Positions 26,941 through 43,322 of a stretch of 64,000 nt of DNA are shown one piece after another. Under the pieces are notes generated by a model. It worked only from the letters and a program-made list of their open reading frames with translations. It did no database searches and had not been told where the DNA came from. How positions within the stretch are numbered: the stretch's first letter is position 1; every line of letters starts with the position of its first letter. This DNA comes from a virus. Lineage: Duplodnaviria; Caudoviricetes. The translations under genes and the position numbers were made by a program. The stretch covers positions 524-64,523 of the IMG/VR virus record IMGVR_UViG_3300010885_017808; one strand, 5' to 3'.

Positions 26941-27289
26941 TTAAGACTCCTTTGTGTGTGTATGTGTATATTATACGGCACTCTGTCCAAACTGTCAACC
27001 AATATTACGAATTATCTGCCGTTGTTTCTTTGCCACGTAAAAGCTGAATCCCAAGCGGAACAGGGTGATGAAGTGCAGTCCCCCTACTTTCTTGTAGGTA
27101 GCCACTGGCCGGTTGAAGAAGGTAAAAGTGGTCATTGCGTGTCCTTAGATCTTTGTGAGGATGTAAACTTTGGCAGCGAATATGACTGCTACCACTAGGC
27201 TTGTTACGAGAATCTCTGTACCTGTCATCTTGTGCTCCTTGTTGCTATGTGTAGATTATATGATCACTTAGCCAAAATGTCAACCAAAA

Positions 27290-27586
27290 TTAATAGTATT
27301 TGCATTCCTGAACATAGACAGGTCCCTGCCCTACCATAGGCCAAGCCTCTCGAAGATAGCAGTGAGGTTGCCGGCTAGGTCTAAGGTTGATAGCCTGGGA
27401 TTGCTGCTGATAGACCGGCGGGTGGATCACACGGGGTTCTTCTCGCTGCTGCATGATGTGGTATCCTATGATGGCTCCCGCGACTATGCCAATGACTTCA
27501 CGTGGCTGGAGTTCTTGACTCTGCGCTGGCAAGATGCTCAGGGCCACGAGGGCCGCCACTATCAACCTTTTGATTGCTGTCATCAT
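27290..27586 (-). CDS. secreted/membrane hypothetical protein
   Basis: Signal peptide plus glycine-zipper-like segment. Confidence 0.6.
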   Translation of the reverse strand: MMTAIKRLIVAALVALSILPAQSQELQPREVIGIVAGAIIGYHIMQQREEPRVIHPPVYQQQSQAINLRPSRQPHCYLREAWPMVGQGPVYVQECKYY

Positions 27587-27627
27587 CTACTCCTTGTTGC
27601 TATGTCTAGATTATACTGCCGAATGCT

Positions 27628-27675
27628 CAAAATGTCAACCAAAATGAAAAAGACCCTAGTGCAAGTAGGGCCTTT
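27628..27675 (-). repeat. terminator-promoter cassette copy A
   Basis: 44/48 nt identical to 32621-32668; stem-loop, U-tract and -35 box. Confidence 0.8.
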
Positions 27676-27885
27676 ATGTGTGTTGTTATGCTACAACGTC
27701 TTCGATTGTTTGTGCGAGTGCGCTAATAGCTTCTTGTACTGCGTCGTCGTCTAAGTCGGTTAACAGTTGCAGTTGTGCTAATTTTGCGTACAATGCGGCT
27801 TGTGCTGGTGACATAGTGGTCCTTTGTTGCTAAGTGTATATTGTAATGCACTTAGCCCCAAACTGTCAACCAAAATGTAAAGCCC

Positions 27886-28182
27886 CTAAGGGCGTTGTGG
27901 GCTTTCTTGTCTCAACTGTTCTCTCTGCAGTTGCGCCTCTCCCATGGCATCGAACGCAGCATCATTGGCATTTAGCGTGTAGAGGATCGCAGCCAACCCC
28001 ACGGTGCTCATGACAAGGTTAGTGACGATCAAGGGCCAGTCTCGGATACGGATTGCGACAATCAGCCACATGAATCCTCCCAGGACCAGCATGGCGGGAC
28101 CTTCCGGATAGTAGCCTAGACCGTTGATCCCTGTGCCTACGATGAGGACCCCAGTGGCTAGCCATTTGATGATGTTGTTCAA
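27886..28182 (-). CDS. small membrane protein
   Basis: 3 hydrophobic segments. Confidence 0.55.
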   Translation of the reverse strand: MNNIIKWLATGVLIVGTGINGLGYYPEGPAMLVLGGFMWLIVAIRIRDWPLIVTNLVMSTVGLAAILYTLNANDAAFDAMGEAQLQREQLRQESPQRP

Positions 28183-28373
28183 ATCATCTCTCCTTCGCCC
28201 GATGTCATGCAGTCTAGGTCGTAGTTGGCCTCTAGGATGTCCACTTCAAAGGTGTTAAGCTCGTAGGCTACGCTGGTGCTGTAAACCGCATCAGGGAACT
28301 CTGCGCCTACTGCAATCAGGCCCTTGAGGTGTGCTAGGGCTTCTGTGAATCGTGTGCGGCGTTGCTTGGTCAT
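28179..28373 (-). CDS. early hypothetical protein
   Basis: Promoter plus GGAG SD. Confidence 0.6.
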   Translation of the reverse strand: MTKQRRTRFTEALAHLKGLIAVGAEFPDAVYSTSVAYELNTFEVDILEANYDLDCMTSGEGEMI

Positions 28374-28461
28374 TTAGTTCTCCAGTTGCTGTGTGTATGT
28401 GTTTATTATACAACCAAAATCGTCTGCTGTCAACCTCTTAAGCAGCGGTGCCGGACCCCAA

Positions 28462-28668
28462 CTAGCATTCGATATCAATGTTGCGGCCCTTGTCGAGATC
28501 TAAACGAAGATTCCTGCTGACTCTCTCTGCGATGATTCGGTCCAGTCTGCGTTCTTCGATCTGTTTGGCGTAGTCGTCAGTGCGTTGCTTTTCCATGCGA
28601 GCTGCGTCTAGACGATACTGTTCGAGGTTGTATTTTATACTGCTTTGTTCGGCTCTTGATATTTGCAT
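28462..28668 (-). CDS. early hypothetical protein
   Basis: Promoter immediately upstream. Confidence 0.6.
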   Translation of the reverse strand: MQISRAEQSSIKYNLEQYRLDAARMEKQRTDDYAKQIEERRLDRIIAERVSRNLRLDLDKGRNIDIEC

Positions 28669-28702
28669 GATGTGTCTATTATACTGCCAAACTTGCCAGC
28701 AG

Positions 28703-29113
28703 TCAACCTTTTGAAACTATCTTGCCGTCGTGGGTGACGTTGAAGTTGCCGCCGATGAGTTCAGCGCCATCATCCTCTGAGATCAGCAGCTTCTTACCCG
28801 TCATAGTTTCTCCCAGGCGAGTGATCAATAACTCTTTGGAGTTGCCTTGTCCGATAAACTCTTGATTGTCTTTACGGTAGGCGTAGAGATTCAAACCGTG
28901 TTGTTCTACTCTAATCTCAACGACTTCACGAAGATCCTCGTCCTCAACATCAAGTTCCTTCTTCCAGTGGCCCACAAACTGGTCAAGATCCTTGTGTGTG
29001 ATACCAGCCTTGGCAAACATATCTACCATGGTCATGAACATTAACTTCTCTTGAATCTTCCAGCCCACATAACAGCCAAGGACAAATACAATAATCAACT
29101 CTAGGTAATCCAT
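28703..29113 (-). CDS. hypothetical protein with N-terminal TM
   Basis: TAATG coupling. Confidence 0.6.
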   Translation of the reverse strand: MDYLELIIVFVLGCYVGWKIQEKLMFMTMVDMFAKAGITHKDLDQFVGHWKKELDVEDEDLREVVEIRVEQHGLNLYAYRKDNQEFIGQGNSKELLITRLGETMTGKKLLISEDDGAELIGGNFNVTHDGKIVSKG

Positions 29114-29439
29114 TAGATTCTCCGGGGACTGTGTAGCGCAGCCGCTTCCTTACGCATTGACCCTGCTCGCTTGTACAATAAGTCTGCGGAGGTAGTCAGT
29201 GCTTGGCTTCGTTCCATTGCCAGTCGCCCGCCACCGAACTCACGATCGATGTAGTACTGGATCAAGGCGTTCTTGATCATGCTGATCAAATCGCCGCCGG
29301 TATCGTCTGGGCAGATAAATCTAACAGGGCAACGACCCCAGGTTTTATTCTCTACAAATTCAGCGTAGTATCTACGATGATCCTTGTTGTTAGCATCAAA
29401 TGCTGTCAGCGGCCTTCCAAAATATTCTAGTCTGCTCAT
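29113..29439 (-). CDS. hypothetical protein (WGRCPVRF)
   Basis: TAAATA 5 nt before ATG 29439. Confidence 0.6.
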   Translation of the reverse strand: MSRLEYFGRPLTAFDANNKDHRRYYAEFVENKTWGRCPVRFICPDDTGGDLISMIKNALIQYYIDREFGGGRLAMERSQALTTSADLLYKRAGSMRKEAAALHSPRRI

Positions 29440-29526
29440 ATGTGTATTTACTGTTAGATAATAAAGAAGCCCCCTAAGCAAGAGTGCAAAGAGGGCTGTT
29501 GTGTCATCGCCATCTAGCGAATCTAG

Positions 29527-29829
29527 TTAGGCTGCAACGGTTTCGGCCGCGGCTTGTGTGCGTGTAGCAGCGGGGCCTGCTGGGTTCTTCTTAGCCACAT
29601 AGGCAATCGCTGCCTCAACGGCTGGGTTGCCTTTACCGTAGCTGGTATCAACCAAGAACTGAGCGATCTCTGCCTTAGTCATCTCGTTGGGCAAGGGGAT
29701 CAAGTCCACGTCCTTGTGATCGTTCTTTGCAAGGATCTTGATACGCATTGTATCATTTGCAAAGCGAATCTTTGTCTTACCGTTCAGTGTCGAAACACCT
29801 GCTACTGCGAATTTTTTTGCTGTCGTCAT
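29527..29829 (-). CDS. hypothetical protein
   Basis: KIRFAND motif; AAGGT SD. Confidence 0.6.
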   Translation of the reverse strand: MTTAKKFAVAGVSTLNGKTKIRFANDTMRIKILAKNDHKDVDLIPLPNEMTKAEIAQFLVDTSYGKGNPAVEAAIAYVAKKNPAGPAATRTQAAAETVAA

Positions 29830-30086
29830 AATAATTACCTTTGTGTGTGTTGTCTGCCAAAAGCGGCATTGTTACTATATTAACTTCTATCCAATCCAAT
29901 TGTCAACCATTTAATTAACCATTTTAACATTTATTGTCACGCTCTCCTTTTCATCTAATGCCGCGATGAACTCGTCGTCGAATACAAGATCCTGCATACT
30001 GAGATCGATCATGGATTCAACCTTGGCCAAGTCAGCATCGCCCTGCCCGGCACATTCGATAGTGAATGAGAATGTAATAGTCCTAG

Positions 30087-30716
30087 TCATTCTGTTACCA
30101 ACCCTAGTTTCTCTTTACCATCCTTGATCCACTCTGTGAGATCCTCAGTGTCTGCGTTCTCTGCTTCGTATTCAGCCATTGACTCTGAGATGCAGAACAG
30201 TTCGTCTAGTTCTGCGGGCAGGGTATCGGCTACCTCAACGGAATTCATCTCGCTATACTCATAGCAGTCATCACAGCCGTCTTCGTAGAGTCCTGCGTAG
30301 CACATGCCTGGTTCGTAGTAGCCTGCCTTAACCCCAAAGCCCAAGTCCATGAGTTTCTCGTAGGCTGCGATAGGTGGAGCCCACGCAGTATCGAAGCCCG
30401 TAGTCAGCATCTTGCCGTCCGGGTGGATGTCACTGTTGCCCGCTTCGCCTGTGTCCCACTTAGTGCCCCACTCGCCTACGCAGTAGTCATACCAGTTGCC
30501 GTAGCCATACTTCTTGACGTTGGCTTTAGTCTGTGCTTCTAACTTCTTCTGTTCGTCCGGATCACCCATGTGTCCACTGACGGTGTCTTTGAGTTCCTCA
30601 GGAACTGGAATGAACTCTTGCAGGAACTCTCCACGCTCCAGGGCATCGTATGCTCGCTGGATCATCGCTGGATCTTCGTGCGTGAGTGTAAGATGATTGT
30701 TGCACCAATTAGGCAT
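30087..30716 (-). CDS. MPNWC/YubB ferredoxin-like family protein
   Basis: MPNWCNN, WGTKWD, FDTAWAPP, YYEPG. Confidence 0.75.
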   Translation of the reverse strand: MPNWCNNHLTLTHEDPAMIQRAYDALERGEFLQEFIPVPEELKDTVSGHMGDPDEQKKLEAQTKANVKKYGYGNWYDYCVGEWGTKWDTGEAGNSDIHPDGKMLTTGFDTAWAPPIAAYEKLMDLGFGVKAGYYEPGMCYAGLYEDGCDDCYEYSEMNSVEVADTLPAELDELFCISESMAEYEAENADTEDLTEWIKDGKEKLGLVTE

Positions 30717-30940
30717 TTGTGTTCCTTTCTAGTTCTATTGCCAACTCAATGTCAGAGGCCGCTTGTGCAGTCAGCTGACTGATAACCTTTAGAATCTTTA
30801 CTTGATCCTTCATGCTTGTCTCGCTGGTTAGTGCGATAACAGAGCGTTGTAGATATGCAATTACTTCTGGTGTCATCACTGCTCCTTTGTGTTAAACTAT
30901 GCGTCTAGTATAACACCAAACGCATAGTCTGTCAACCAAA

Positions 30941-31276
30941 TTACAGTTCTACACTATCCCAACTGCCTACAGTTGCTTTCTTGATAGTTCCCTTCAGGGC
31001 ATCCTGTACCAGCTGAATCGCTTGCTTGTTCTTGCCACCGATGTGCCATTGATACTGTCCCATGGGAGTCTCGTACTCTTTCCAGTCATAGACAGTTGCT
31101 ACTGTGCCGTCTTCGCCTACGATGATCCACTCCTGTGTAGTCTTGTCACCGCCGCCCAAGCCTTCGCCGAATGTGGCAACCAGCGTTGCGTAATCAGTTG
31201 TGATGTAACCTTGCAGGCTAGTCATGTTGGCTGCTGAGAAGTCGTCTGCTACTGTGTAAGTTGCGTTGCGTTTCAT
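30941..31276 (-). CDS. early hypothetical protein
   Basis: TSLQG..ATVYDWK..WHIGG. Confidence 0.65.
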   Translation of the reverse strand: MKRNATYTVADDFSAANMTSLQGYITTDYATLVATFGEGLGGGDKTTQEWIIVGEDGTVATVYDWKEYETPMGQYQWHIGGKNKQAIQLVQDALKGTIKKATVGSWDSVEL

Positions 31277-31391
31277 AGTTGCTCCTATTGCGTTGTTGAT
31301 GTGTCTATTATACAACCAAAATGCCAAACTGTCAACCTACGAAGTGCCCAGGCGTGTTGCAGGGCCTAGTGGTAGGCTGACAGCTGACAAA

Positions 31392-31778
31392 TTAATCTAT
31401 CCAGCTTTCTACCATTAACACGGGCTTCTTAAGCACACGCTTAACGAAGTCTTCTGGGGTATCGTCGGTGCGTACTAGCACAAAGCCCATGCTCTCTACC
31501 AAGTCTGTCTCGCACACTTGCAGGTCTAGTCCTGCGGCTTCAAATGCAATGTTCATCTTAGTAAGCGCATACTTGACACCGGCTTCAAATGCCATATACT
31601 CGCTGTCGGCAGTGTCTTCAAAGTCAAACTCTGTTTCCATAATGTTCACATAGTCTTGACCGTCTGCTACAATGAACTTGCCGATCTTCTTCCAGTTGCT
31701 CTGCTTCTCACTGTCAAAGTGGTCACAGGCTTCGTTGAGGTCGAAGCTGGAGAAACTGTTATAATTTACTTTAGCCAT
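31392..31778 (-). CDS. early hypothetical protein
   Basis: Promoter plus GGGAG SD. Confidence 0.65.
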   Translation of the reverse strand: MAKVNYNSFSSFDLNEACDHFDSEKQSNWKKIGKFIVADGQDYVNIMETEFDFEDTADSEYMAFEAGVKYALTKMNIAFEAAGLDLQVCETDLVESMGFVLVRTDDTPEDFVKRVLKKPVLMVESWID

Positions 31779-31834
31779 GTTGCGCTCCCTGTTGTGTTAC
31801 TATGTATCTATTATACAACCAAACTACAGTTGTG

Positions 31835-32065
31835 TCAACCAATTACTACCACTCGGCGGATCTTTTCGTTGTCCTCTTCGTCGTAGTCGACTTCGACGAG
31901 CTTGTCCATACGATGGTATTCACTGTAGCGTACAGTTCCCTCGAAGACTTCGCTAATCTTAGGGGCAACCTGTGTGCGCCAGTGATCGCCGTAGCCGTAG
32001 CTAAAGTGAACATCCGAATCCTGGTTCTCACCCTCTAACATTGCTATAAGTGCTGCGACTTTCAT
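31835..32065 (-). CDS. early hypothetical protein
   Basis: YGYGDHWRTQVAP; SD. Confidence 0.6.
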   Translation of the reverse strand: MKVAALIAMLEGENQDSDVHFSYGYGDHWRTQVAPKISEVFEGTVRYSEYHRMDKLVEVDYDEEDNEKIRRVVVIG

Positions 32066-32145
32066 CTTGTGCTCCTTTGTTGCTATGTGTTTATTATAGC
32101 ACAGCCTTGCCCAAAATGCAAGTGCTGTGCTAATAACCCTACAAG

Positions 32146-32547
32146 TTAGTCAACTTCTAGTTGCCCGTATTTTGCTTCCCATGCAGTAATAAAGTCCCCG
32201 TCTATGTCACAGCTAACATAGTTGTCCCCTTGCATGCCCTGCTCGCTGTACTCCGCAGTTGCAAGTCCCTGCGCAATTAAATATTCGTTTAGTTGCTGTT
32301 TAAACAAGCTGTCTGTGTATATAAGCCCGTCTTTGTTAACACGCCAGTCGTCTGTGTTAAAGTATATGCAAAGCTCGCCAAAATCTTTGTCCTCACTACA
32401 GTATGTTACCTGCATATCTGTAATGCGTACAGCAGTTGCTTTGTCGCTCCACAAACTATCGCCCGCAGTATTAAAAACAATTTTGCTGTCCCGTGTGTCG
32501 TTATCAGCATTGTCCCAATCCGTGTGCATGTCGTTTATAAGTTGCAT
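32146..32547 (-). CDS. early hypothetical protein
   Basis: GLIYTD..YSEQGMQGDNYVS. Confidence 0.65.
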   Translation of the reverse strand: MQLINDMHTDWDNADNDTRDSKIVFNTAGDSLWSDKATAVRITDMQVTYCSEDKDFGELCIYFNTDDWRVNKDGLIYTDSLFKQQLNEYLIAQGLATAEYSEQGMQGDNYVSCDIDGDFITAWEAKYGQLEVD

Positions 32548-32620
32548 AGTGTGCTCCGTTTTGTTTACAAAGTATGCGCTGTTTTGTTTAGCGCATGTAT
32601 GTATTATATGGCCACTTGTC

Positions 32621-32668
32621 CAAAATGTCAACCAAAATAAAAAAGACCCTAGTGTTAGTAGGGTCTTT
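32621..32668 (-). repeat. terminator-promoter cassette copy B
   Basis: 44/48 nt identical to 27628-27675. Confidence 0.8.
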
Positions 32669-32686
32669 CTTGGAGTCAGTCCGTTA

Positions 32687-33046
32687 TTAGAAGACTTTCA
32701 TCTTGCTGTAGCCAGTTGCCAACAGCGCCAGCGCATCTTCTGCTGTGCATGATACAGTGGCTACTCGCTTGCGGTCGATGCTGCCGTTCTGTGGGTAGTA
32801 ACGTCCACCGCCATTGCCATAGCCGCCTGGTGCGCCGCCAGCATTGAACTTCTGATTAGCGCCGACGATCCAACGGTTAAGGCGACCGCTTTTAGTTGGT
32901 ACACGAAGGCGGTCCGAAGTCTCAAGTTGATTCATCAACTTGCTAGTATGCTCTGTGGTATGACCGATGTGGTAAGCCACGTCTTCGGTAAAACAGAGTG
33001 GATTCTTTGCGACGAATTCGCAAATAGTTTGATTAGTGCTTTTCAT
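32687..33046 (-). CDS. possible winged-HTH protein
   Basis: Helix-turn-helix-like N-terminal half; SD. Confidence 0.45.
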   Translation of the reverse strand: MKSTNQTICEFVAKNPLCFTEDVAYHIGHTTEHTSKLMNQLETSDRLRVPTKSGRLNRWIVGANQKFNAGGAPGGYGNGGGRYYPQNGSIDRKRVATVSCTAEDALALLATGYSKMKVF

Positions 33047-33126
33047 AATATGAGCTCCTGTGTGTGTGTTACTGTATTGTTTACAGTGTGTTAATAATAA
33101 CTTCAAATCGCCGTTTTGTCAACCAA

Positions 33127-33540
33127 TTACTTGACCAGTGCGTAGGGTTTATTCCACGATCCCACATTCACGTCGATGTAGTAGGCAGTGTCAAAGTAGT
33201 CTGTCATCGCATCGCTGCGATCGTACCACTCAGTCCCTTTAGCTGCTGCAAAGAGTTCAATGAGGAAGTTCTTGCAGCTTCCGTCGAAGTGCTCGTGGAA
33301 CCAATAGGGGTTAATGTCGAGGTAGTCTTTGATTTCCCGTCGAAGTGCTCCCTGCTGCTGCATTCTATCTGAACCGACTCGGTTGCAGTTCTCGATGAAG
33401 TCCAGCTTGCCCTGCTTGATGTTAACAACCAGCGTTGAATGATTGCGTACGGCATAGCTGGCCTTGACGCCATACTTGTCGCAGACTGCTTTCATTGCGG
33501 GGACTAGCTTTGCCTTGCGTTCCTGATTCATCCATGCCAT
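33127..33540 (-). CDS. early hypothetical protein
   Basis: SDAMTDYFD..GSWNKPY. Confidence 0.7.
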   Translation of the reverse strand: MAWMNQERKAKLVPAMKAVCDKYGVKASYAVRNHSTLVVNIKQGKLDFIENCNRVGSDRMQQQGALRREIKDYLDINPYWFHEHFDGSCKNFLIELFAAAKGTEWYDRSDAMTDYFDTAYYIDVNVGSWNKPYALVK

Positions 33541-33591
33541 GATGCGCTCCTTGTTGTGATGTATTGATTATACTGCCAATTGCCCAAAATG

Positions 33592-33819
33592 TCAACCGGA
33601 TTGAGTGTTGCAAAATTGCCACATCTTTAACTCAGCGCCTTCCAGTCCCAAGAGCACTCCCTCGAAGTCTCTGTAGGTGCAGCAGGCATGGGCTCTGGGC
33701 CAACTCATATGCCCTTCAGCTACAGCCTTGTGATAGCGTGTTACAGAGGCCTTGGCGGGCCCGGCCTTCTTGTAGTATTTTACAAAGTTGCCGCGATCGT
33801 CGTAGACTACCCAGCCCAT
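33592..33819 (-). CDS. early hypothetical protein
   Basis: Follows upstream ORF. Confidence 0.5.
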   Translation of the reverse strand: MGWVVYDDRGNFVKYYKKAGPAKASVTRYHKAVAEGHMSWPRAHACCTYRDFEGVLLGLEGAELKMWQFCNTQSG

Positions 33820-33820
33820 A

Positions 33821-34132
33821 TCACCACGCTATCTCTTTTGAAGCGAAGCGGATCACGCCTTCGTAGTCCAACTGACTCTGCTCGAACTCTGTAAGAGCGT
33901 TGTCAGCAACAATGGACCAATCGATGATGTGCTCGCGGAAGGCTTGATTGTCCTGCTCAATTTGGCTGCGAACACCCATCACGGTCTCTGTTGCCTTGTT
34001 GGGGTTAACCTTCTTGACCACATAGTCTGAACCGCCCTTGGCTTTCCAGTACTGGGGGCACTCACCAACTCCGTCCCAATCGTGGGCTCCGTAGTTCTCA
34101 TAAACCTGTGTAGTGATTAAGAGTTTTGCCAT
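33821..34132 (-). CDS. early hypothetical protein
   Basis: ENYGAHDWDG..WKAKGG. Confidence 0.65.
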   Translation of the reverse strand: MAKLLITTQVYENYGAHDWDGVGECPQYWKAKGGSDYVVKKVNPNKATETVMGVRSQIEQDNQAFREHIIDWSIVADNALTEFEQSQLDYEGVIRFASKEIAW

Positions 34133-34176
34133 TTTGTGTTCTCCAGTGTGTTGCTGTCTATGTGTTTATTATACCA

Positions 34177-34380
34177 TCACCTAGCCAAAATGTCAACCAA
34201 TTTCTGATTCAATTGGTCCATCTCACTCTGCTCCACGTAGAAGTCTGTGGTGGGATCCCAGTAGCTGCCCTCCTTGGGATCATAGTAGAGGACACGGTTC
34301 ACAAACCAGAAAGGACCTTCGAGCCCCTTGCGGGGCTCCCACTTGGCATCGCGTGTTCCAAGTACTTTAAATCCCATCAC
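34177..34380 (-). CDS. early hypothetical protein
   Basis: GLEGPF..YYDPKEG.YWDPTTD. Confidence 0.6.
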   Translation of the reverse strand: MMGFKVLGTRDAKWEPRKGLEGPFWFVNRVLYYDPKEGSYWDPTTDFYVEQSEMDQLNQKLVDILAR

Positions 34381-34640
34381 ATGCTCCAGTAAGCTTCGGA
34401 ACTTGGGGAGCAGTAACGCGGAGTGTCATAGCGTTCCTGATACTCCTTGCCGCCCATCATGTTATTGCGTGTTACCATTGTCTCGTGTATCTCAACGCGA
34501 TAGCCTTTGCTAGCTGGATACTTGACAGCGTAGACCTCTACGATAGCACTACGATCTGCTGTGCTGTGGTCTACTTTGCGGTCCAAACGCTCGCCGGACT
34601 TTTGACGTGCATCTTTTTTGTAAAGTTCTACGGTGTACAT
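34377..34640 (-). CDS. early hypothetical protein
   Basis: TPRYCSPSSEAYWSM. Confidence 0.6.
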   Translation of the reverse strand: MYTVELYKKDARQKSGERLDRKVDHSTADRSAIVEVYAVKYPASKGYRVEIHETMVTRNNMMGGKEYQERYDTPRYCSPSSEAYWSM

Positions 34641-34699
34641 AAGTTTCGCTCCTTGTGTGTTTGTGTAAGTCTTAATTATACTGCCAGCTGTCCAATCTG

Positions 34700-34900
34700 T
34701 CAACCCCACTGGCAATCACGTTCACGATCGCAAACCAATTCCCAATACTCTTTAAGATTCGCTTTAGCACGGGCAACATCCCCGCCTACTTCGTCCAGGA
34801 TCTCTTGATAATCTGCAACATCGTAGCACTCGAATACCCAATGACCACCCGCTTCGTAATTCGCTGCGGCGTAATCTGATAATTCTTTGATAGCTGTCAT
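34700..34900 (-). CDS. early hypothetical protein
   Basis: Promoter plus SD. Confidence 0.6.
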   Translation of the reverse strand: MTAIKELSDYAAANYEAGGHWVFECYDVADYQEILDEVGGDVARAKANLKEYWELVCDRERDCQWG

Positions 34901-34973
34901 CTGCTTGTCCTATTGCGTTGTTGATGTATCTATTATATGTCCAATCCGGCAGGCTGTCAACCAAAAAGATTTG

Positions 34974-35002
34974 TTGACATTTTGGATAGATGGCAGTATA
35001 AT
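34974..35002 (+). promoter_or_regulatory. counter-oriented consensus promoter
   Basis: TTGACA-N17-TATAAT on + strand, back-to-back with minus promoter 34932-34960. Confidence 0.8.
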
Positions 35003-35007
35003 CTAGT

Positions 35008-35101
35008 CATAGGTTCGAACTACTACGTAGGGGGTGGACATGGAGAGCCACCGTGTTGACCTCGCGGTGAAGAAGGTAAAAAAAGGACCCCGAAGGGTCC
35101 T
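35008..35101 (+). ncRNA. candidate small RNA
   Basis: Downstream of + promoter; hairpins GGTGG/CCACC and CACCG/CGGTG; ends at GGACCC-CGAA-GGGTCC. Confidence 0.35.
35077..35101 (-). terminator. intrinsic terminator with cUUCGg tetraloop
   Basis: Minus strand AGGACCC-TTCG-GGGTCC-TTTTTTT. Confidence 0.85.
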
Positions 35102-35294
35102 AAAGTCTACCAGGAGAAATCTTATGAGTTCACAGTCTCGAACGGACTGAGTTCTTCACTGTCCGCAACACCCATGTCAGTGAGTGCAGCGAATACTAGT
35201 TCTATGTTACACTCAAGGATGCTGGCAATCATCTTTGCGCTATGTCCCTCGATGTAGAGTTCTTGAATGTCATATGATAGTTCTGCGAGTTTGC

Positions 35295-35519
35295 TCATGT
35301 TGTTTCCTTTTGTGTGTGTTGTTTAATCATTAAGTATAATGGATCTATAATCTCTACGTCTTCTAGTTCAAAGTCTCGTGTGGCCCAGTCCATCCACTCT
35401 TCGGAGAACACTTCCACTTCTCCGTTCATCAACATGGTTCGGGCCTGTTCCTCTGTCTCACATTCAACCACGTAGGTTTCAGCGACTATGGAATTACGCC
35501 AAAAGGTAAACTTCTTCAT
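35295..35519 (-). CDS. early hypothetical protein
   Basis: Coupled ORF. Confidence 0.55.
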   Translation of the reverse strand: MKKFTFWRNSIVAETYVVECETEEQARTMLMNGEVEVFSEEWMDWATRDFELEDVEIIDPLYLMIKQHTQKETT

Positions 35520-35716
35520 CAGTCAATCCAGCAGTCACTGGCCTGTTGTACAGTTGTTTCCTGCCTACCAATGTAGCCGCCTTCGAAGCCATCAGGCCCT
35601 GCACGTAGGAACAAGCGATCACCTTCTATCTTGTAGATGACTCCGCCCTGCTCCACATCGCACTTGAAGCCCACGTAGTCACCTACCTTAACAGTCTTGC
35701 CTTCAACAGTTGTCAT
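35519..35716 (-). CDS. small SH3/KOW-like protein
   Basis: VKVGDYVGFK. Confidence 0.5.
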   Translation of the reverse strand: MTTVEGKTVKVGDYVGFKCDVEQGGVIYKIEGDRLFLRAGPDGFEGGYIGRQETTVQQASDCWID

Positions 35717-36080
35717 TTAGCCAACTCCTGTGACTGTTGCTTGACAGTGTCAACGCCCTTGTCTAGCATACGAGCAATGCCCTGGAAGCCTACAGTTGCT
35801 AAGATAAGTCCGAAGACTGCCCCAAGAATAAAGTTTCTCATACTTCTTCTCCTTCGTAGTTGTAAACGGGTTTGGGATCGTTGCGATGTTTCCAGCGATA
35901 GTACAAGGCCTGCGGGATGCCTAGCTTGAAGGCCCACATAACGTCCATTACTATCATACCTACTGCGAATGCTAAGATAAGTTCCATGTCAGCTCCTTTG
36001 TGTGTGTATGCGTGTATTATATGCTCGCTATGCGGAATTGTCAACCACTTTAGCAGCGGGGCCTATAGCCCCATACTACT

Positions 36081-37289
36081 TTATGCCGCGTCCTTTTCGT
36101 AGATCACAGTCTGTCCAAAGGGTGCTTCGGCTTCTGTGTTACCTTTAACAATAAAGACTGTATCAACTTGATCGTCAGGTCCCCAACTACCGCAGGGGAA
36201 GCCATCTGTGAACATAATGAACTTCTTAGCCTCGATGCCCTGCTCAAGCATATAGGTAAAGTTAATATCGAAGTCTGTACCACCACCACCCTGTGGCTCA
36301 TACTCTTCTAGTTCGTGACTGTTGTCTTGTGTGATCTTAACATAGTTATAGATGTCAGTATCGAAGCACCACAAGTGAATACTGAAGTCTTCGTATTGAT
36401 CCATAATGCCTTTGACTTCGCTAAGGAATACAGTAGCATCTTCTACTCCGATACTGCCACTCATGTCAATTGCAATAGCCACGTCAATAGTTGTGTCCTG
36501 ACGCATCCCTGGAAGGATTGCACCTGAGTGCATTGACTTACGGTTAGGACGAGTAAAGGAATAGTCGTTGCGGATAATGCTTTGGATCTCTTGACGGATC
36601 AACTGGCGCCAGCTAATCTTAGGCTCAGTCATGTCCTTGATCAAACGCTGGATACCTGCGGGCACTTTGCCAGCGCCAGCGGCACTTGCACTCTGGATCA
36701 TTGCTTCTTTGATCTCATCGCGGATCTGTTGTGCTTCTTCCTTAGTCATGCCGGGTATGCCTTTACCCTTGCCTTCTTTGTCGCTTTCTTTGCCCGGGCC
36801 TGTGCCGTCTTCGTTAATGTGCTCGTCGAGCAGTTCGCCTAATTGCTTGAGCAAGTCTGGCATGGAGATCTTTTCTGCTTTCTCGTAGAGCTCATCATAG
36901 ATCTCTTCCCAAGCCATGCCGCGATACTTTTGATCGTAGCAGATCTTAACTTCAGTAATCTTCTCACCAATGCGTTCGTCTACAAGGATCTGATTGACAG
37001 CGTAGTCTTGTGCGATGTTTGACAACTGGCGATCACGTGATCCAACTCGCCCGAAGTGATCAAAGACGCAATGACAAATCTCGTGTCCAAACAAGAACTC
37101 TAGTTTCTTAACACTGAGCTTCTCAATGAACTTCTTGTTATAGTAGAAGTTGCGACCGTTAGTAGCCGCTGTTGGGCACCATTCGCTAGCGTCAATCAAC
37201 AGCATACGAGTTGCCATGTTACCGAAGAAGGGTGCTTTGAGTAGTAAGCCTACTCGGGCTGTTGTTAGTTTCTCTACGATGGGATCCAT
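36081..37289 (-). CDS. HEXXH metallopeptidase-like + VWA domain protein (DUF2201-type)
   Basis: TAATNG, HEICH, MIDAS DMSGS, GGGTDF, FTDG. Confidence 0.85.
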   Translation of the reverse strand: MDPIVEKLTTARVGLLLKAPFFGNMATRMLLIDASEWCPTAATNGRNFYYNKKFIEKLSVKKLEFLFGHEICHCVFDHFGRVGSRDRQLSNIAQDYAVNQILVDERIGEKITEVKICYDQKYRGMAWEEIYDELYEKAEKISMPDLLKQLGELLDEHINEDGTGPGKESDKEGKGKGIPGMTKEEAQQIRDEIKEAMIQSASAAGAGKVPAGIQRLIKDMTEPKISWRQLIRQEIQSIIRNDYSFTRPNRKSMHSGAILPGMRQDTTIDVAIAIDMSGSIGVEDATVFLSEVKGIMDQYEDFSIHLWCFDTDIYNYVKITQDNSHELEEYEPQGGGGTDFDINFTYMLEQGIEAKKFIMFTDGFPCGSWGPDDQVDTVFIVKGNTEAEAPFGQTVIYEKDAA

Positions 37290-37347
37290 TAGTCGCTCTC
37301 CTTAGTATATGTATAGTATATACTCAATCTATCCATTTGTCAACAAA

Positions 37348-37379
37348 TAAAAAAAGGGTGTTGCGTTTCCACAACACCC
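37348..37379 (-). terminator. intrinsic terminator
   Basis: GGGTGTTG/CAACACCC stem plus U-tract on minus strand. Confidence 0.7.
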
Positions 37380-37397
37380 CCAGCAATGGGCGAGGTC

Positions 37398-38483
37398 TTA
37401 ATTCTCCATTGCTGACAAAACATACTTACCAAAACGCTTGTGGAACTCATCGAAGCTCTTCATCTTCGTAGCGTCGAAGGGCAAGTTATAGTTAGTGAGG
37501 CCCGTCTTAGCACCCATCACTACCAACTCTGTTGGGAAGTTATCCATCATGTAGCGGAAGAAGCAGTCAGCCTGTGCGTCAAAGTCTTTAGCCTTCTTCT
37601 CTGCTTGATCCTTCAACTCGTAGCACAATGACACCGTCAATGAATACATCGCTGAGACTTCTTTGATGCTCAAGTCTTTGACCTTGCCCTTGAGGATGTC
37701 TTCTGCCTTAGGCAAGCGTCCCGCAATCTTACGGTGTGCCATAAACTTAACAGCCAAGCCATCACCTACAGCACCTGCGATCAAGTTGTGCAGGGTGTCG
37801 ATATCGCAATCGTCGTCCTTCAACAAGTCGCTGACGAACACCCACGAGCGTGGAGTTGCGAATGCCTTGCTAGGGCTCTTAGGATCAAAGTCATACAAGT
37901 CCTGCTTGGCAAAGCCTACATAACCTAACACCTCAGGGTGAACAGCGTTGTTCACAGCCCACTCTTGGAAGTCGTCGAAGTCAATCTTCATTTCCAAGTG
38001 GATGAAACGATTAGCCAACGGTGCTGGCATACGATATGTCACGCCACGATCGCCTTCACGGTTACCAGCGGCAACCACGTCAACACCTTTAGGCAGTTCG
38101 TATGTACCTACACGACGATTCAGAATCAATTGGTAGGCAGCGGCCTGTACAGCAGGAGGAGCGGAGTTCAGCTCGTCCAGGAAGATAATTGCTGTGGACT
38201 CTGGGTCCGTAGGAAGCTCACTAGGAGGAGCCCAAACCATCTTGCCTTGATCTGCGTTGTAATAAGGGATACCTTTGATGTCTGTAGGTTCCCACAGGGC
38301 TAGTCGAACGTCAACGACTTCGCGTCCTGCGTCTTCGCCAATCTGCTTGACAATGTCCGACTTACCAATGCCCGGGGGTCCCCATAGGAACACTGGACGA
38401 CGTGTTTGAATTGCTTTACGAATAGAACGCTTTGCGGACTTTGGACCGACTTGGCGAACTGACATATCTGATGATTTTGCCAT
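37398..38483 (-). CDS. MoxR-like AAA+ ATPase
   Basis: GPPGIGKS, FLDELN, AAGN, LANRF, TPRSW. Confidence 0.9.
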   Translation of the reverse strand: MAKSSDMSVRQVGPKSAKRSIRKAIQTRRPVFLWGPPGIGKSDIVKQIGEDAGREVVDVRLALWEPTDIKGIPYYNADQGKMVWAPPSELPTDPESTAIIFLDELNSAPPAVQAAAYQLILNRRVGTYELPKGVDVVAAGNREGDRGVTYRMPAPLANRFIHLEMKIDFDDFQEWAVNNAVHPEVLGYVGFAKQDLYDFDPKSPSKAFATPRSWVFVSDLLKDDDCDIDTLHNLIAGAVGDGLAVKFMAHRKIAGRLPKAEDILKGKVKDLSIKEVSAMYSLTVSLCYELKDQAEKKAKDFDAQADCFFRYMMDNFPTELVVMGAKTGLTNYNLPFDATKMKSFDEFHKRFGKYVLSAMEN

Positions 38484-38559
38484 TTAAGACCTCGCTTTAA
38501 GAAAATTAAAATTACTGTGTTTCTCAGTGTTTAAAGTATAACGCCGAACTGTGATCCTG

Positions 38560-39300
38560 TCAACCTATTTTCTTCACATAATGAAATTGCGTTGTCTTGT
38601 CATCTCGGTGTGCTTTAATCTTAGCCTTGATGCGATAGCTGGCATCCTTGTTCATGTTAGTGCCAAACCAGAAGTCTACAATAGACTCGCCCATCCTTGC
38701 TGTGATACGATACTTCTCGTATTGCTGCGAGTAGCGGCTGTCCATGACTGTGATGTCACCGATGACTGTTTCTCCCACGTTGCCTGCCAGCTGCTCGCTA
38801 GCAAAGACTTCCCGTTTGATCTCTTGACGCTGCGAGTCTCGACGGGCTATACTAGGCAAGCAGCTTACGATAGCAAACTCTAACAGGTTGCGTCCTGTAA
38901 AGGATTCTGTGCAGGCAACCTTGTATGCCTGCTGCTGGAAGTCATTGAGTCCACCAGCCATGGCTAACATGGTATAGCCTGTGAAGTGTCTGCGGTATGC
39001 TGCACCATTAACACGATCAGCATCAGTGACAATGCTGAAGTCGTTGGTACGAAGATGTTCACGAACAACTGCCTTGTTGGCAGTCTTGTCCAAGCCGGCG
39101 TCTGTGTAGACGTTCTCTTTGAAGTAGCCACCATTGAGACGATCCACTGCTGTTGCCAATGCCCAGACATCGTCTGCTGCGAATTGCTGCTGTTGTGGGA
39201 TTTTATATGCAGGCTTACTGGCTTCTTCACAGTCGTCTGCATGCCCAAGGCGCCGAATAGCATTTGGGCTCCAACCTGTTACATCTACAAATCCTGACAT
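38560..39300 (-). CDS. hypothetical protein, C-terminal OB-fold-like
   Basis: AAGGAG SD and promoter. Confidence 0.65.
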   Translation of the reverse strand: MSGFVDVTGWSPNAIRRLGHADDCEEASKPAYKIPQQQQFAADDVWALATAVDRLNGGYFKENVYTDAGLDKTANKAVVREHLRTNDFSIVTDADRVNGAAYRRHFTGYTMLAMAGGLNDFQQQAYKVACTESFTGRNLLEFAIVSCLPSIARRDSQRQEIKREVFASEQLAGNVGETVIGDITVMDSRYSQQYEKYRITARMGESIVDFWFGTNMNKDASYRIKAKIKAHRDDKTTQFHYVKKIG

Positions 39301-39436
39301 AGTTCGCTCCTTGCGTTTAACAATAGCTCTATTATATAGTCTCGTTCCTGATGTGTCAACCAAAAAGAAAGGACCCCTAAGGATCCTTCCTCAAACCCGC
39401 CCCGGGAGCGAATCGGTATAGGTTTGAAACTTGCTA

Positions 39437-39709
39437 TTAAAGCGTGATGCCCATAGCCTGTGCTTTGTAACCCAAAGCAACAATCTTACGTGATGGCTTG
39501 CCCATTTCGTATTCAGTAACCACAACACCGTTGCCGGCTGTACGTGACTTGCTGTAGACTGCATAACCATTCTGACGAATGCGTGATGCCTCAGCGGACA
39601 AGTTCTTAACACCGAAACGCTTTGCGGCGTCTGATGCTGTCAACTTCTCACCGTTGTACAATGCGGTGAATACCTTGAATGTTTTAGTGTCTTTAGAGAT
39701 AAATTTCAT
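39437..39709 (-). CDS. winged-HTH DNA-binding protein
   Basis: LTASDAAKRFGVKNLSAEASRIRQNGY. Confidence 0.7.
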   Translation of the reverse strand: MKFISKDTKTFKVFTALYNGEKLTASDAAKRFGVKNLSAEASRIRQNGYAVYSKSRTAGNGVVVTEYEMGKPSRKIVALGYKAQAMGITL

Positions 39710-39802
39710 TTTAGTTTCCTTTGTTGGGCTGATAATAAGTTGTTCAGCGTGTTACTAGTATAGCAGGGTGATCATTATTAATCAACCCCGCATTTTACCA
39801 AT

Positions 39803-39994
39803 TTACTTCTTGTAGCTTACCGAACCCTTAAGGAATGCACCTAACAGCACAACCGAGGCCCAGGTCTCAAGGGTTAATGGGATAGCCAATACGGGGAACA
39901 AGGTGTTCAATGCCCAAATGGTTAGTATGGGCCCAATGGCAACCAAAAACACAATCAATGCAATAATCAGTACCAATTTAATAACATCACTCAT
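39803..39994 (-). CDS. small membrane protein
   Basis: IWALNTLFP; hydrophobic. Confidence 0.6.
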   Translation of the reverse strand: MSDVIKLVLIIALIVFLVAIGPILTIWALNTLFPVLAIPLTLETWASVVLLGAFLKGSVSYKK

Positions 39995-40235
39995 TTTCTA
40001 ACTCCTGTATGTCTCGCTGACGTTCTAGTTCAGCAATCTCGGCATCAATTTCTTTAGCCTTACGTTTACCAGCTACCGCAGTCCCTTTGTTATAGACTTG
40101 CCAGTAGTGCTCACCACAGTATGCCTTCTTATTAAGAGTTTTGCAACCACACATCTTAATGGGCCAGTTTCGCCAAGGGTCTTGATCAGCGCCAATGAAT
40201 TGACAGCTATCAAACAGCATAGTATCTGCTGACAT
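39987..40235 (-). CDS. small Cys/His zinc-binding protein (GcrA C-terminus-like)
   Basis: CQFIG..MCG..YCGEH. Confidence 0.55.
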   Translation of the reverse strand: MSADTMLFDSCQFIGADQDPWRNWPIKMCGCKTLNKKAYCGEHYWQVYNKGTAVAGKRKAKEIDAEIAELERQRDIQELENE

Positions 40236-40236
40236 A

Positions 40237-41301
40237 TTAAGCCCTTCGCATCACTGTAACTTCTGCCATGTCTTTCCACTGCACTGGGAAGCTCTTACGC
40301 AAGTCCGCAATCTTAAGAACTGTACGCAGGCTCAACTCTCGCAGACGCTCACGGTTAGTGTCCATGAACTCGATGATCTCATCTTTGGCGATGGGTTCGA
40401 ATTCGTAGCTGTCCAGCATGCCATCTGCTGTGATCTGTTTGATACGCAGAACCTTCTCACGGTCCGTGTCCATCTGCAGATCAATATAGTGACAGCGTGA
40501 CTCTAGTGCCGCCAAGTGATCCTGTAGCTTCTTACTGCGAACATTCTCGAACTTGATGTTGGTAATAAAGATAGCACCACCTTTGAACTCAAACTTGTCT
40601 GGGATGCCTTCTGAGCGCAGGAGTCTGCTGTCAGTGTTCCAGCTGATAGTGCGCTTCTTGCTACTATCTAATGCCGCTTTGAGAATGTTCAGTGACACAT
40701 CGTCTAGCAGTACACTATCGCAGTCATCAAACACCACAACACTCTTGCTGTCGCTGAACTTGTATAGCTTGGCATACAAGCCCAATGCTGACATAGCACC
40801 CTTGACTACTTCATAGCGTGGCTTACGCTCGCCTAGTGTATTAAACAAGTCGTCACGTGTTAGTACTTCCTCAACACCAAAGCTCTTGCCTACGCCTGGG
40901 GGTCCGCTGACAATCATAGCACGTACATCACCAGACTTAACAGCCTTGGTCATGTCAGTGAGGATTTGGAAGCGAGCCCTAGTCTTCTCGATGAGCTCTT
41001 CGTCTGTATACTGTGATACTACAGCGTCTGCTACTTTGATCTGTTCCAAGCTCTTGTCTGTGACAGTAGACTGGGGCATGTTGCCGCTGACTACCACATA
41101 GCTTTCAGGGCTAGCGCATTTGATGCGAATGTTGCGTTCCGGGACGCCGTTGTTAGCAGGCTGACAGGTGCCGCCGTCTACAACCACATAGCCCGAGTCC
41201 GGACGGTATGCTTCTACAAGCATGAAACGGTAGCCTGCAAGACTAGTGTCTTTGCCGCGAATCTTGTAAGTACCTTCTCTAACTTCAATTAATGCTGTCA
41301 T
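40237..41301 (-). CDS. P-loop AAA-type ATPase
   Basis: GPPGVGKS, VFDDCD, FITN, LESR. Confidence 0.8.
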   Translation of the reverse strand: MTALIEVREGTYKIRGKDTSLAGYRFMLVEAYRPDSGYVVVDGGTCQPANNGVPERNIRIKCASPESYVVVSGNMPQSTVTDKSLEQIKVADAVVSQYTDEELIEKTRARFQILTDMTKAVKSGDVRAMIVSGPPGVGKSFGVEEVLTRDDLFNTLGERKPRYEVVKGAMSALGLYAKLYKFSDSKSVVVFDDCDSVLLDDVSLNILKAALDSSKKRTISWNTDSRLLRSEGIPDKFEFKGGAIFITNIKFENVRSKKLQDHLAALESRCHYIDLQMDTDREKVLRIKQITADGMLDSYEFEPIAKDEIIEFMDTNRERLRELSLRTVLKIADLRKSFPVQWKDMAEVTVMRRA

Positions 41302-41369
41302 TTCTCGCTCTCCAAAGTTGTTTAACTAAGCCTCTATTGTATGACAAATCCCAGGACCTGTCAACCTCT

Positions 41370-41828
41370 TTATGCATCTTCTTCTTCCAAATGGCTAATA
41401 CGAAGTTCTTCCGCAATGGCATCTGAAAGCAAGATGTAGTCTTCACCATTCATGCAGACATACCACAGTCCATCGCTGCGAAGAATGTATTCAAATTCCT
41501 CGTACTGGGGATTAGCACGGTAGTCATTGAAGTTGGTAAACATGAGATAACCGCTGTCCTCTTCGCCACGATCACGTCCGTAGAAGGTGGTCCACTTGCT
41601 GCGAGCATCTGTATCATCGAACCTCTCATTGAAGTCGTGCTGCTCTCCTGTGGTCTCACGTAGGCTGCTGATGCTGCCCTGTGTGATTAACTCTTCTGCT
41701 ACTATGGGATCCGTATAGTGAGCCAGCAAGAGCTTGCCGTTGTTAGCTAGATACCCGTCCCAGTGGCAGTAGACCTGCTTGATGACACCGTCGTCTAGTT
41801 CTATTGAGATAGTGCTACGTGTTGCCAT
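41370..41828 (-). CDS. conserved phage early protein (YCHWDGY)
   Basis: MATRS..YCHWDGY..YGRDRGE. Confidence 0.7.
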   Translation of the reverse strand: MATRSTISIELDDGVIKQVYCHWDGYLANNGKLLLAHYTDPIVAEELITQGSISSLRETTGEQHDFNERFDDTDARSKWTTFYGRDRGEEDSGYLMFTNFNDYRANPQYEEFEYILRSDGLWYVCMNGEDYILLSDAIAEELRISHLEEEDA

Positions 41829-41865
41829 TTGCGCTCCTGTGTGTTACTATGACTAGAGTATACGC

Positions 41866-42243
41866 TCAAGCATAGAGATTGTCAACAGCATTTTCATCTA
41901 GATCAGCAAATCGTTTCTTCATGTCTGCTGCTGTGGCCTGTGCCTGCTGCAGAGCCTGGTAGATGATGTCTTCTGCTGTACCGTCTAGCATGACTTCGCG
42001 AGCATCTGCATACAAGCAACCGCCCAAGTACTCTGCAGCCAGCTCTACGTCCTGAAACAGTACACGTACCCTAAGCATGAACCACTCCAGCTTGCCGCTG
42101 TCGATGTCCTCGCAGAGCTGCTGTATATCAGTCACTGAGTCGTCAAAGCAATCACGTGGATGCATGTCTTCCCAGCTACGATCCACAATGACTGTGAACG
42201 GACCGCGTTGTGTGTCAGCAATTGTTTCGTAGTGTCGTTGCAT
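41866..42243 (-). CDS. early hypothetical protein
   Basis: EYLGGCLY. Confidence 0.6.
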   Translation of the reverse strand: MQRHYETIADTQRGPFTVIVDRSWEDMHPRDCFDDSVTDIQQLCEDIDSGKLEWFMLRVRVLFQDVELAAEYLGGCLYADAREVMLDGTAEDIIYQALQQAQATAADMKKRFADLDENAVDNLYA

Positions 42244-42251
42244 ATTAATCC

Positions 42252-42512
42252 TTAGATCTCTGAGAACTCAATTTTGGGATCCAGGCTGCGCAATTGATTC
42301 GCTACAGTGACTAGTTCTTTATAGCGTCTACGGGTCTCTGCAATAGGCAGCTCACCGTCGCAACTTAAGTTCTCTGGACTCAGTGCAGAGTCAATGATGT
42401 CAGCTAGCCTAGCACGATCAACGTAGAGTGTCATGTCTAGTGGCTTGGCTGTCTTGTCAAAGCATAGATCCCAACGATGTTTACGATCTATGTATGCCTG
42501 CAATGCTTTCAT
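42252..42512 (-). CDS. early hypothetical protein
   Basis: LSPENLSCDGE. Confidence 0.65.
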   Translation of the reverse strand: MKALQAYIDRKHRWDLCFDKTAKPLDMTLYVDRARLADIIDSALSPENLSCDGELPIAETRRRYKELVTVANQLRSLDPKIEFSEI

Positions 42513-42580
42513 GTTCGCTCCTTAGTGTGTGTAAGCCTAGAGTATACATGAAAAGGGGGTCTGTGTCAACCCCTAGTGGA

Positions 42581-42814
42581 TTAAAAGATCCAGCCGCCGA
42601 AGTTCTCGTAGTCGTAGACTGCTACTGGAACACCTTCTTTTAGATAGACAATAATGCCCCCAAGATCGTGACTGATACAGGCCTGCAGCACCTGCTCATG
42701 ATCTTTCTCGAACTTATCGGTGTATTCAACAACGCTGCTGTCGTCGTCGCCTGCTGCTGCACTGTAGTCCACAGTCTTGGGCATGGTGTTGATTATGCTG
42801 ATGTCATAGCTCAT
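42581..42814 (-). CDS. early hypothetical protein
   Basis: Promoter plus SD. Confidence 0.6.
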   Translation of the reverse strand: MSYDISIINTMPKTVDYSAAAGDDDSSVVEYTDKFEKDHEQVLQACISHDLGGIIVYLKEGVPVAVYDYENFGGWIF

Positions 42815-42870
42815 TGTGTTGTCCTCTCGGTGTGTCTAAGTCACTAGTATACGATCATCTATCCAAAATG

Positions 42871-43164
42871 TCAAGCGAATTCGTGTTCGTCAGCAATGAT
42901 CTGCAGCATGTTAGCGGGAACTCTCCACATGCCGTGAGCAGTGTTCACAGTCACGTACTTGACGGCAATCTTTGTGACTACCCCCGTAACGTTGCGTCCC
43001 AGCTTGGCGCTGTCAAAGTTGACATTGCTGCCTATACGTAGCTGCTGCTTGGCCTGTCTAGTCAGCTGCGCTCGATTCCACTTGATAGCTTCTATCACAG
43101 TATTCAGTTCCGCGTTCGTGAACTCGCCCTGCATGATAGCTGCGTTGATTTGCTTGATGTTCAT
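42871..43164 (-). CDS. small SH3-like protein
   Basis: GVVTKI..WRVPANML. Confidence 0.6.
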   Translation of the reverse strand: MNIKQINAAIMQGEFTNAELNTVIEAIKWNRAQLTRQAKQQLRIGSNVNFDSAKLGRNVTGVVTKIAVKYVTVNTAHGMWRVPANMLQIIADEHEFA

Positions 43165-43245
43165 AATGGCTCCTGTGTGTAAGTATGCATTGATTATATA
43201 TGGAAACTGCTGCTGTGTCAACTAGTACTTGCAGCATCTAACTAG

Positions 43246-43322
43246 TGGCCTGCCCTGAGGGATTCGAACCCCCGACCGACGCCTTAGAAGGGCGTTGCTC
43301 TATCCAACTGAGCTAAGGACAG
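43246..43322 (-). tRNA. tRNA-Arg(UCU)
   Basis: Cloverleaf, anticodon loop CTTCTAA, TTCGAA T-loop, encoded CCA. Confidence 0.93.

Follow-up and report, generated by a model that had tools for sequence, protein, structure and literature searches.

A host-type promoter that points against the early genes of an uncultured phage very probably drives a non-coding RNA gene of a new family. The locus lies in a stretch of 64,000 nucleotides (hereafter the window) that covers almost all of a linear IMG/VR viral record of 64.5 kb, estimated to be 16% complete, and its conserved part is the predicted 5' end of the RNA, in which two near-invariant motifs flank a small hairpin that keeps its pairing as its sequence changes. 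Because promoter and core recur together in 43 distinct lineages, the features of the locus are far beyond what chance would give. To the fuller reading, that the product is a stand-alone early non-coding RNA of this new family, action in trans included, we give about even chances.

A plus-strand promoter in a leftward early block

Freshwater and lake metagenomes contain near-identical DNA, in 20 runs that belong to 9 studies and include 1 RNA run. The window has 18 perfect copies of TTGACA-N17-TATAAT, where shuffles lead one to expect 0.06, and 16 of them fall in a leftward early block at 26970-43534; 15 of these are on the minus strand, and the single plus-strand copy is the promoter considered here. 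The remaining two perfect plus-strand promoters of the window are at 18142 and 24083. Each of the 15 minus promoters precedes a small leftward gene, and they have in common the spacer pattern TTGACA-TTTTGG...G-TATAAT, from which we conclude that the phage leans heavily on the sigma-70 polymerase of its host across this long early block.

The spacer of the plus promoter follows the extended consensus of the block (TTGACATTTTGG...GCAGTATAAT), and the minus promoter at 33567-33595 has the same. It had been proposed that the plus promoter is perfect, that it is the only one of its strand in the early block, and that it stands back-to-back with a minus promoter, and each of these points was confirmed (Table 1): the partner is the promoter at 34932-34960, and the -35 hexamers of the pair are 13 bases apart. 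The sequence features described in the initial annotation were likewise all found in place. The spacing by itself would put the start of the RNA at about 35009, an A that lies 7 bases past the -10.

Two other regions of the block attracted our attention. A trio of tRNA genes (Arg-TCT, Met-CAT and Leu-TAA) lies on the minus strand at 43246-43496 with a perfect promoter on either side, at 43193-43221 and 43506-43534. At 36081-38483, also on the minus strand, a VWA-domain-like protein of 402 aa adjoins a MoxR-like AAA ATPase of 361 aa, and for both the relatives in jumbo phages (PA5oct, Atu_ph07 and Phosso among them) are only distant, at 34-46% identity. Among cultured phage records, 815 have a conserved counterpart of the VWA protein, 796 of them over most of its length, and it is annotated there in many conflicting ways (homing endonuclease, hydrolase, hypothetical).

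Table 1. Features of the locus, by position in the window
Feature	Position	Strand	Evidence or remark
Neighbouring perfect promoter, drives the 66-aa gene at 34700-34900	34932-34960	-	Consensus match; context, outside the RNA; same arrangement in the close relative L149
RNA promoter, sigma-70 consensus	34974-35002	+	TTGACA, 17-base spacer, TATAAT
Conserved 5' core of the RNA	35009-35047	+	Covariance model R1, 54.2 bits, E 5.5e-13, a score to be read with the window being one of the 12 sequences from which R1 was built
Motif A, GGTTCGAA	35012-35019	+	Near-invariant
Slot hairpin, CTAC / GTAG	35020-35023 with 35027-35030	+	Covarying stem-loop of 3-4 bp
Octamer palindrome CTACGTAG	35023-35030	+	Part of the slot hairpin
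Motif B, GGGGGTGGAC	35030-35039	+	Near-invariant
Alternative pairing, GGTGG (in motif B) with CCACC	35033-35037 with 35048-35052	+	Overlaps the 5' arm of the 35049-35069 hairpin
Open frame, 38 codons from GTG 35034 or 36 from ATG 35040	35034-35150	+	Rejected as a gene
GAG, 3 variable bases after motif B	35043-35045	+	Conserved
Lineage-specific hairpin, CACCGTG 35049-35055 / CGCGGTG 35063-35069, 7-base loop	35049-35069	+	Sequence and relatives
Seven A, then GC hairpin (35084-35101); intrinsic terminator of the convergent minus operon	35078-35101	.	T-run on the minus strand
58-aa gene convergent with the RNA, which meets its terminator	35122-35298	-	Synteny; not a fixed partner of the RNA

The conserved core and its relatives

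A nucleotide search of cultured phage records with 34600-35400 gave no match. A pattern taken from the sequence shared by the window and L009 led to L047, L048 and L054, and the same pattern without its first two bases and with GAG added found 17 stretches in viral contigs, 16 of them family-like. From 12 family cores we built the covariance model R1. When run on 48 whole viral records it matched 21, second copies and divergent members included, and the divergent members L115, L116, L117, L119, L120 and L121 were within its reach, beyond that of the patterns. The pattern scan of metagenome contigs gave at least 118 stretches; 80 loci were scored, and R1 produced 67 matches, 38 of them at 34 bits or more. 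The 29 metagenome matches below 34 bits, together with L063, were left out as chance; the 12 of these 29 that were inspected are mostly GC-rich, and none has a promoter at the right spacing. A total of at least 51 instances was thereby reduced to at least 43 distinct ones by collapsing at 93% identity over 120 bases, and on the family R1 gives 44 core matches, of which 43 are distinct.

Two further leads were tried and rejected. L058 resembles a member by eye and has DnaA boxes nearby, and was dropped at an R1 score of just 13.7 bits; a looser pattern, ATAGGTTCGAA...GGGGTG, brought in chiefly tRNAs and unrelated stretches. Among bacteria and archaea, taken at one genome per species (185,579 species), 88 stretches fit the pattern, with a best R1 score of 32.6 bits, which is background for DNA selected by pattern, and the five cultured jumbo phages with the VWA protein that were scanned gave no R1 match (0/5) at E up to 1. 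The suggestion that Rfam might supply a known family came to nothing: on 33500-36500, at E up to 10, Rfam 15 returned three weak chance matches (E 1.9-9.2), all to the minus strand, and at the gathering score it returned nothing at the element in the loci of ten relatives. In literature searches, the titles and the openings of abstracts held nothing on these motifs. As far as these scans reach, the family is one of uncultured, mostly freshwater phages, and its distribution appears to be phage-only.

The contig of one relative, L070, also carries a permuted two-piece tmRNA at 4616-5032 on the minus strand, with the tag ANDEKFALAA. It scores 130.9 bits with the permuted tmRNA model of Rfam and 130.7 bits with the betaproteobacterial one, and these scores are a hint that the L070 phage has a betaproteobacterial host.

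The core begins with motif A, continues through a slot of 6-17 bases to motif B, and ends with three variable bases and GAG; in short-leader members it is preceded, in order, by the -10, 6 bases, an A and two further bases. All four features of the family are present in the window, namely the host-type promoter, motif A, the covarying slot hairpin, and motif B with GAG. A search by regular expression found a -35/-10 pair ending 3-7 bases 5' of the core in 18 of the 43 members, and the rest have variant -10 hexamers or a longer leader. In the long-leader members the distance from promoter to core is greater by about 30-40 bases, and an added 5' hairpin precedes the core; the stem of this hairpin differs from member to member with its pairing kept, as judged by eye and uncounted. 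These members indicate that the core need not touch the start site, yet is always transcribed. The near-invariance of motifs A and B is in part built in, because the retrieval pattern for most members demands both; the members that R1 alone could find show [G/A]TTCGA[A/T] and GGG[G/A]TGGAC, with one or two variable positions per motif.

Covariation across relatives had been put forward as a check on the structure, and it was found at all three pairs of the slot helix. All cells (100%) are paired, and changes on both sides occur in 8, 15 and 4 cells of the three pairs, which take the forms C-G, U-A, G-C and U.G at the first, A-U, G-C, C-G, U-A and G.U at the second, and G-C, A-U and C-G at the third. 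The observed covariation score was reached by none of 500 shuffles. The alignment had been fitted to R1 and is to that extent biased toward the structure; we nonetheless take the slot hairpin to be real, because sliding the 3' partner by 1-3 columns lowers pairing to 35-49% and because the pair types are so various. The wobble cells, five of them G.U or U.G and none A.C, fit the sense strand only. Two members, L116 and L117, have a slot of just six bases without a hairpin. The palindrome of the initial annotation is thus present as an octamer, but it is better read as part of this covarying stem-loop. Other helices proposed by RNAalifold are of a different kind: one between the motifs (GTTCG with TGGAC) never varies and is broken by an A.C in 2 of the 43 members, and those that join motif A to motif B or to GAG involve invariant bases only.

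Motif invariance is also what would be expected of bases contacted by a protein, and the conserved stretches could in principle bind, as duplex DNA, a regulator of the divergent promoters, the transcript being a by-product. The 8-base palindrome GTTCGAAC, at +5 to +12 of short-leader members, would suit such a site. We consider this very improbable, given that the core of the long-leader members is displaced from the promoter by those 30-40 bases, that a slot of 6-17 bases changes the helical phase, and that the covariation in the slot is that of a hairpin, with G.U cells confined to one strand.

The frame that opens within motif B deserves a similar hearing, since it could encode a small basic peptide of 36-38 residues from 35034 or 35040. 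It is open, at 25-61 codons, in the window and its three closest relatives, and a G-rich stretch lies 5' of ATG 35040. In most relatives, however, this ATG has become GTC, GGC, GTA or GAG, and in some GTG; across 42 members the frame from a G/ATG within motif B ranges from 6 to 103 codons with a median of about 12, and in one more it runs off the contig. The codon-pattern conservation that would have spoken for a peptide was not found in the four closest sequences, where the variable columns number 8, 5 and 4 at codon positions 1, 2 and 3, and where each pair of sequences shows one synonymous codon change to 3-7 non-synonymous ones. The frame also runs through the terminator hairpin and into the convergent gene. 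A peptide is in our judgement scarcely credible, and the proposal that the promoter drives a non-coding product, the frame being only the alternative, is upheld by a start, a length and a codon pattern that are all unconserved.

The 3' end and the neighbouring genes

Past the core, the members of the family diverge into lineage-specific hairpins. That of the window (35049-35069) is kept in L107, L110 and L149 with compensating changes and one mismatch: a T.G is replaced by T-A in the close relatives, and a G-C by A-T in L149, whose version also contains the G.G mismatch. The alternative pairing of GGTGG with CCACC, in which invariant bases take part, is present in the sub-lineage of the window. 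Two mutually exclusive hairpins, as had been described, can therefore be drawn for the window, but the arrangement is confined to its own sub-lineage. Folded as a single sequence, 35009-35108 gives -32.5 kcal/mol (z -1.85), which is unremarkable, and in this fold motif B pairs with window-specific sequence.

The RNA had been expected to end at the next stem, an expectation that is open to doubt. Read on the plus strand, the hairpin at 35084-35101 comes after seven A, and the eight bases that follow it contain two T; its T-run serves the minus strand, which makes termination of the plus RNA there doubtful. It could possibly act as a weak stop at best, and the RNA would then be about 93 nt long. 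The stem shows compensating changes in L107, L110 and L149. No further plus-strand terminator-like site is listed after the locus before 37236, and our own scan, which covered 330 bases, detected intrinsic terminators on the strand of the RNA in 4 of the 43 members, the window not being among them; the clearest, in L054/L110, is a hairpin with an A-run on one side and a T-run on the other. With such a terminator in just 4 of 43, the product would not be a classic terminator-ended small RNA, and in the window a GC hairpin with a U-run on its own strand, of the Hfq type, was not found.

Contigs of the RNA run, which show neither strand nor ends, matched 34692-34905 and 35233-35420, with none listed on 35009-35110. 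The first of these, a lake metatranscriptome contig, corresponds to the 66-aa gene beside the minus promoter at 100% identity, which indicates that the phage of the window, or a near-identical one, was present in an RNA library.

The RNA unit keeps its own company rather than that of its neighbours. Homologues of the 58-aa protein, the middle part of which we take to resemble a helix-turn-helix, occur at 29 viral loci with 45-83% identity, and the RNA lies beside one of them at a single locus (L009, where a counter-oriented promoter and a similar stretch stand behind the gene); in L054 it adjoins a different gene. The 66-aa gene has homologues at 9 loci, and of the 8 records scanned with R1 one gave a match (the record of L040), elsewhere on the contig. 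Between the window and L107, L110 and L149 the plus promoter is identical at 24-25 of 29 positions and the core at 28-29 of 39, whereas L107 and L110 have an unrelated gene and minus promoter upstream (6-7/29 for the promoter), and L110 has an unrelated gene downstream as well (65/177). In several contigs the unit is present twice, at a distance of 0.5-3.4 kb, and each copy has a promoter of its own. In L047 (7028-7345, minus strand) and L048 (8921-9241, plus strand), the gene divergent from the RNA promoter encodes about 105 aa with a GIY-YIG-like N-terminus, as judged by eye.

Where heuristic calling gives a neighbouring ORF, the nearest one downstream is convergent with the unit in 25 of 33 members and co-oriented in 8, and the nearest one upstream diverges from it in about 25 of 34, so that the lone counter-oriented promoter is a recurrent trait of the family and no accident of this phage. 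The same orientations would suit a counter-transcript that acts in cis only, whether as antisense, by convergent block of upstream minus-strand read-through or by cleavage of that read-through, and that insulates early operons; in the window, L107, L149, L193, L200 and L147 the RNA does meet a convergent terminator from behind. Antisense in cis needs no particular sequence, however, yet the core is conserved across lineages with different neighbours, and the 8 co-oriented members also argue against it. In the window, moreover, a plus RNA ending at 35101 would fall short of the 58-aa frame, which ends at 35122. We hold action purely in cis to be quite improbable.

Possible roles of the RNA

A link to DNA replication has more in its favour, although we still regard it as unlikely. 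The promoter would in that case fire into a replication origin, and the start of the RNA would serve as a primer, an R-loop seed or a transcriptional activator. In 7 of the 43 members the 450 bases that follow the core contain perfect DnaA boxes (1, 2, 3, 3, 4, 5 and 5 boxes), and in none do the 450 bases upstream. In L116 and L117 the five boxes and the stretch of 70% A+T that follows them lie in an origin-like region at about 70-200 bases after the core; in L108, three perfect boxes and one near-perfect box, followed by about ten repeats that contain ACCGGT, span about 140-520 bases after the core; and in L099 the boxes are accompanied by other short repeats. The genome G039 (166 kb, 99% complete) has six perfect boxes, and the sole close pair among them follows the element at a distance of about 250 bases. 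Repeated 8-mers were counted on both sides: 11 of 40 members have them downstream, and 3 of 38 upstream. The core is G-rich on the RNA strand (skew +0.445). Four relatives, L198, L124, L168 and L137, have repeated near-palindromes, ATAAGAAT..ATTCTTA, at 90-200 bases past the core, where others have DnaA boxes, and these may be sites for another DNA-binding protein.

Against this, 36 of the 43 members are without a perfect DnaA box nearby, and the window has none in its entire 64 kb, nor are repeats clustered around the locus; a cluster of boxes or iterons with an A+T-rich stretch by the promoter, as at a DnaA-dependent origin, was not found there. The G-richness, examined as a sign of R-loop formation, ends with the 40-base core, beyond which the skew is about 0, the cumulative GC skew of G039 tracks gene orientation with no turning point, and paired copies 0.5-3.4 kb apart in several contigs would be odd for origins. 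The clusters in 7 of the 43 do point to a DNA-level role of the locus in some lineages. That the RNA start is the primer or activator of a host-DnaA-assisted, transcription-dependent origin throughout a large uncultured freshwater phage clade, with the boxes lost or moved in compact lineages, is a tentative proposal that we regard as unlikely.

Several known systems offer points of comparison. The oop RNA of lambda is a short RNA with its own constitutive host-type promoter that opposes an early operon near the replication origin; it overlaps its target at the coding end and stops at a terminator of its own. The present RNA resembles it in having a counter-oriented host-type promoter of its own, would likewise end close to the 3' end of a convergent gene, and may share the position next to a replication origin. 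Unlike oop, with which it has no relation in sequence or structure, it meets a terminator that belongs to the other strand, and it may not overlap the 58-aa gene; conservation here is of the 5' end and does not depend on the neighbour. ColE1 RNA II and the T4 origins oriF and oriG are cases of RNA-primed or transcription-activated origins, and they share with the family a strong promoter directed toward an origin-like region, a G-run and, in some relatives, DnaA boxes downstream; the window, in contrast, is without a DnaA box, repeats or an extended G-rich zone, and about 100 bases are involved rather than several hundred.

The nut and put sites of lambdoid phages are promoter-proximal RNA elements that act on long co-oriented operons. 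As in these, conserved single-stranded boxes here flank a small variable hairpin just past an early promoter, and more than one copy per genome is possible, but most of the present units face convergent genes, and Rfam gave no match. These three groups (oop, the RNA-primed origins, nut and put) are the nearest analogues in function, and the unit appears to belong to none of them.

Motif A had been described as T-loop-like. The octamer is indeed invariant, GGTTCGAA being the commonest T-loop sequence of tRNAs, and loose pattern scans also caught true tRNAs. The closing stem, however, is absent: T-stem, acceptor end and cloverleaf are all missing, the bases that flank GGTTCGAA are unpaired in the alignment, and ARAGORN found three tRNAs in the window, at 43246-43496 only, and none at the locus. 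Possible likenesses to the tRNA-like domain of tmRNA, to T-box elements, to the 5' end of initiator tRNA, to a recombination hotspot and to a suppressor of operon polarity, as well as to pairing with the anti-Shine-Dalgarno sequence, were also considered; we claim none of them.

We return, then, to a non-coding RNA that acts in trans, and for which the following course of events can be proposed. Host RNA polymerase with sigma-70 would start at about 35009. The first 40 or so bases of the transcript would be its conserved part, in which the motifs flank a hairpin of 3-4 bp with freely changing sequence; a lineage-specific hairpin would come next, and then the terminator of the convergent operon, met from the wrong side. 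The variable hairpins would be scaffolding, displaying the two invariant stretches to one partner common to all these phages, for which a universal host component or a conserved phage protein is a candidate. Invariant sequence amid changing neighbours argues for such a shared partner and against purely local antisense, and the RNA might accordingly be a binder, a decoy or a regulator, rather than antisense to its neighbours.

Target prediction, one of the checks suggested earlier, showed no advantage of the core over its shuffled versions, the duplex energies with the 84 translation start regions of the window being equal for both. The ribosome-binding-site form GGAGCGA, which is common in relatives, occurs at 3 of the 84 genes of the window. 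The original idea of an abundant early non-coding RNA that acts as decoy, antitoxin mimic or regulator is supported in part: what stands is the non-coding RNA unit, as a promoter and core that are kept together as a module and contain a covarying hairpin, whereas abundance and each of the three roles would be proposals.

Phage-encoded small RNAs are few and come mostly from cultured model phages. The present element, a 40-base core kept behind a consensus host promoter in at least 43 distinct lineages of uncultured phages, lies outside Rfam and outside the bacterial genomes scanned, and its genomic setting, unusual as it is, is a repeated one. Should it bind a universal host component, it would be a tool of early take-over in wide use; should it mark an origin, it would offer a way into the start of replication in these large phages. 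In either case, R1 lets the element be annotated in metagenomes, and the core is a short and easily synthesised RNA for use in pull-downs.
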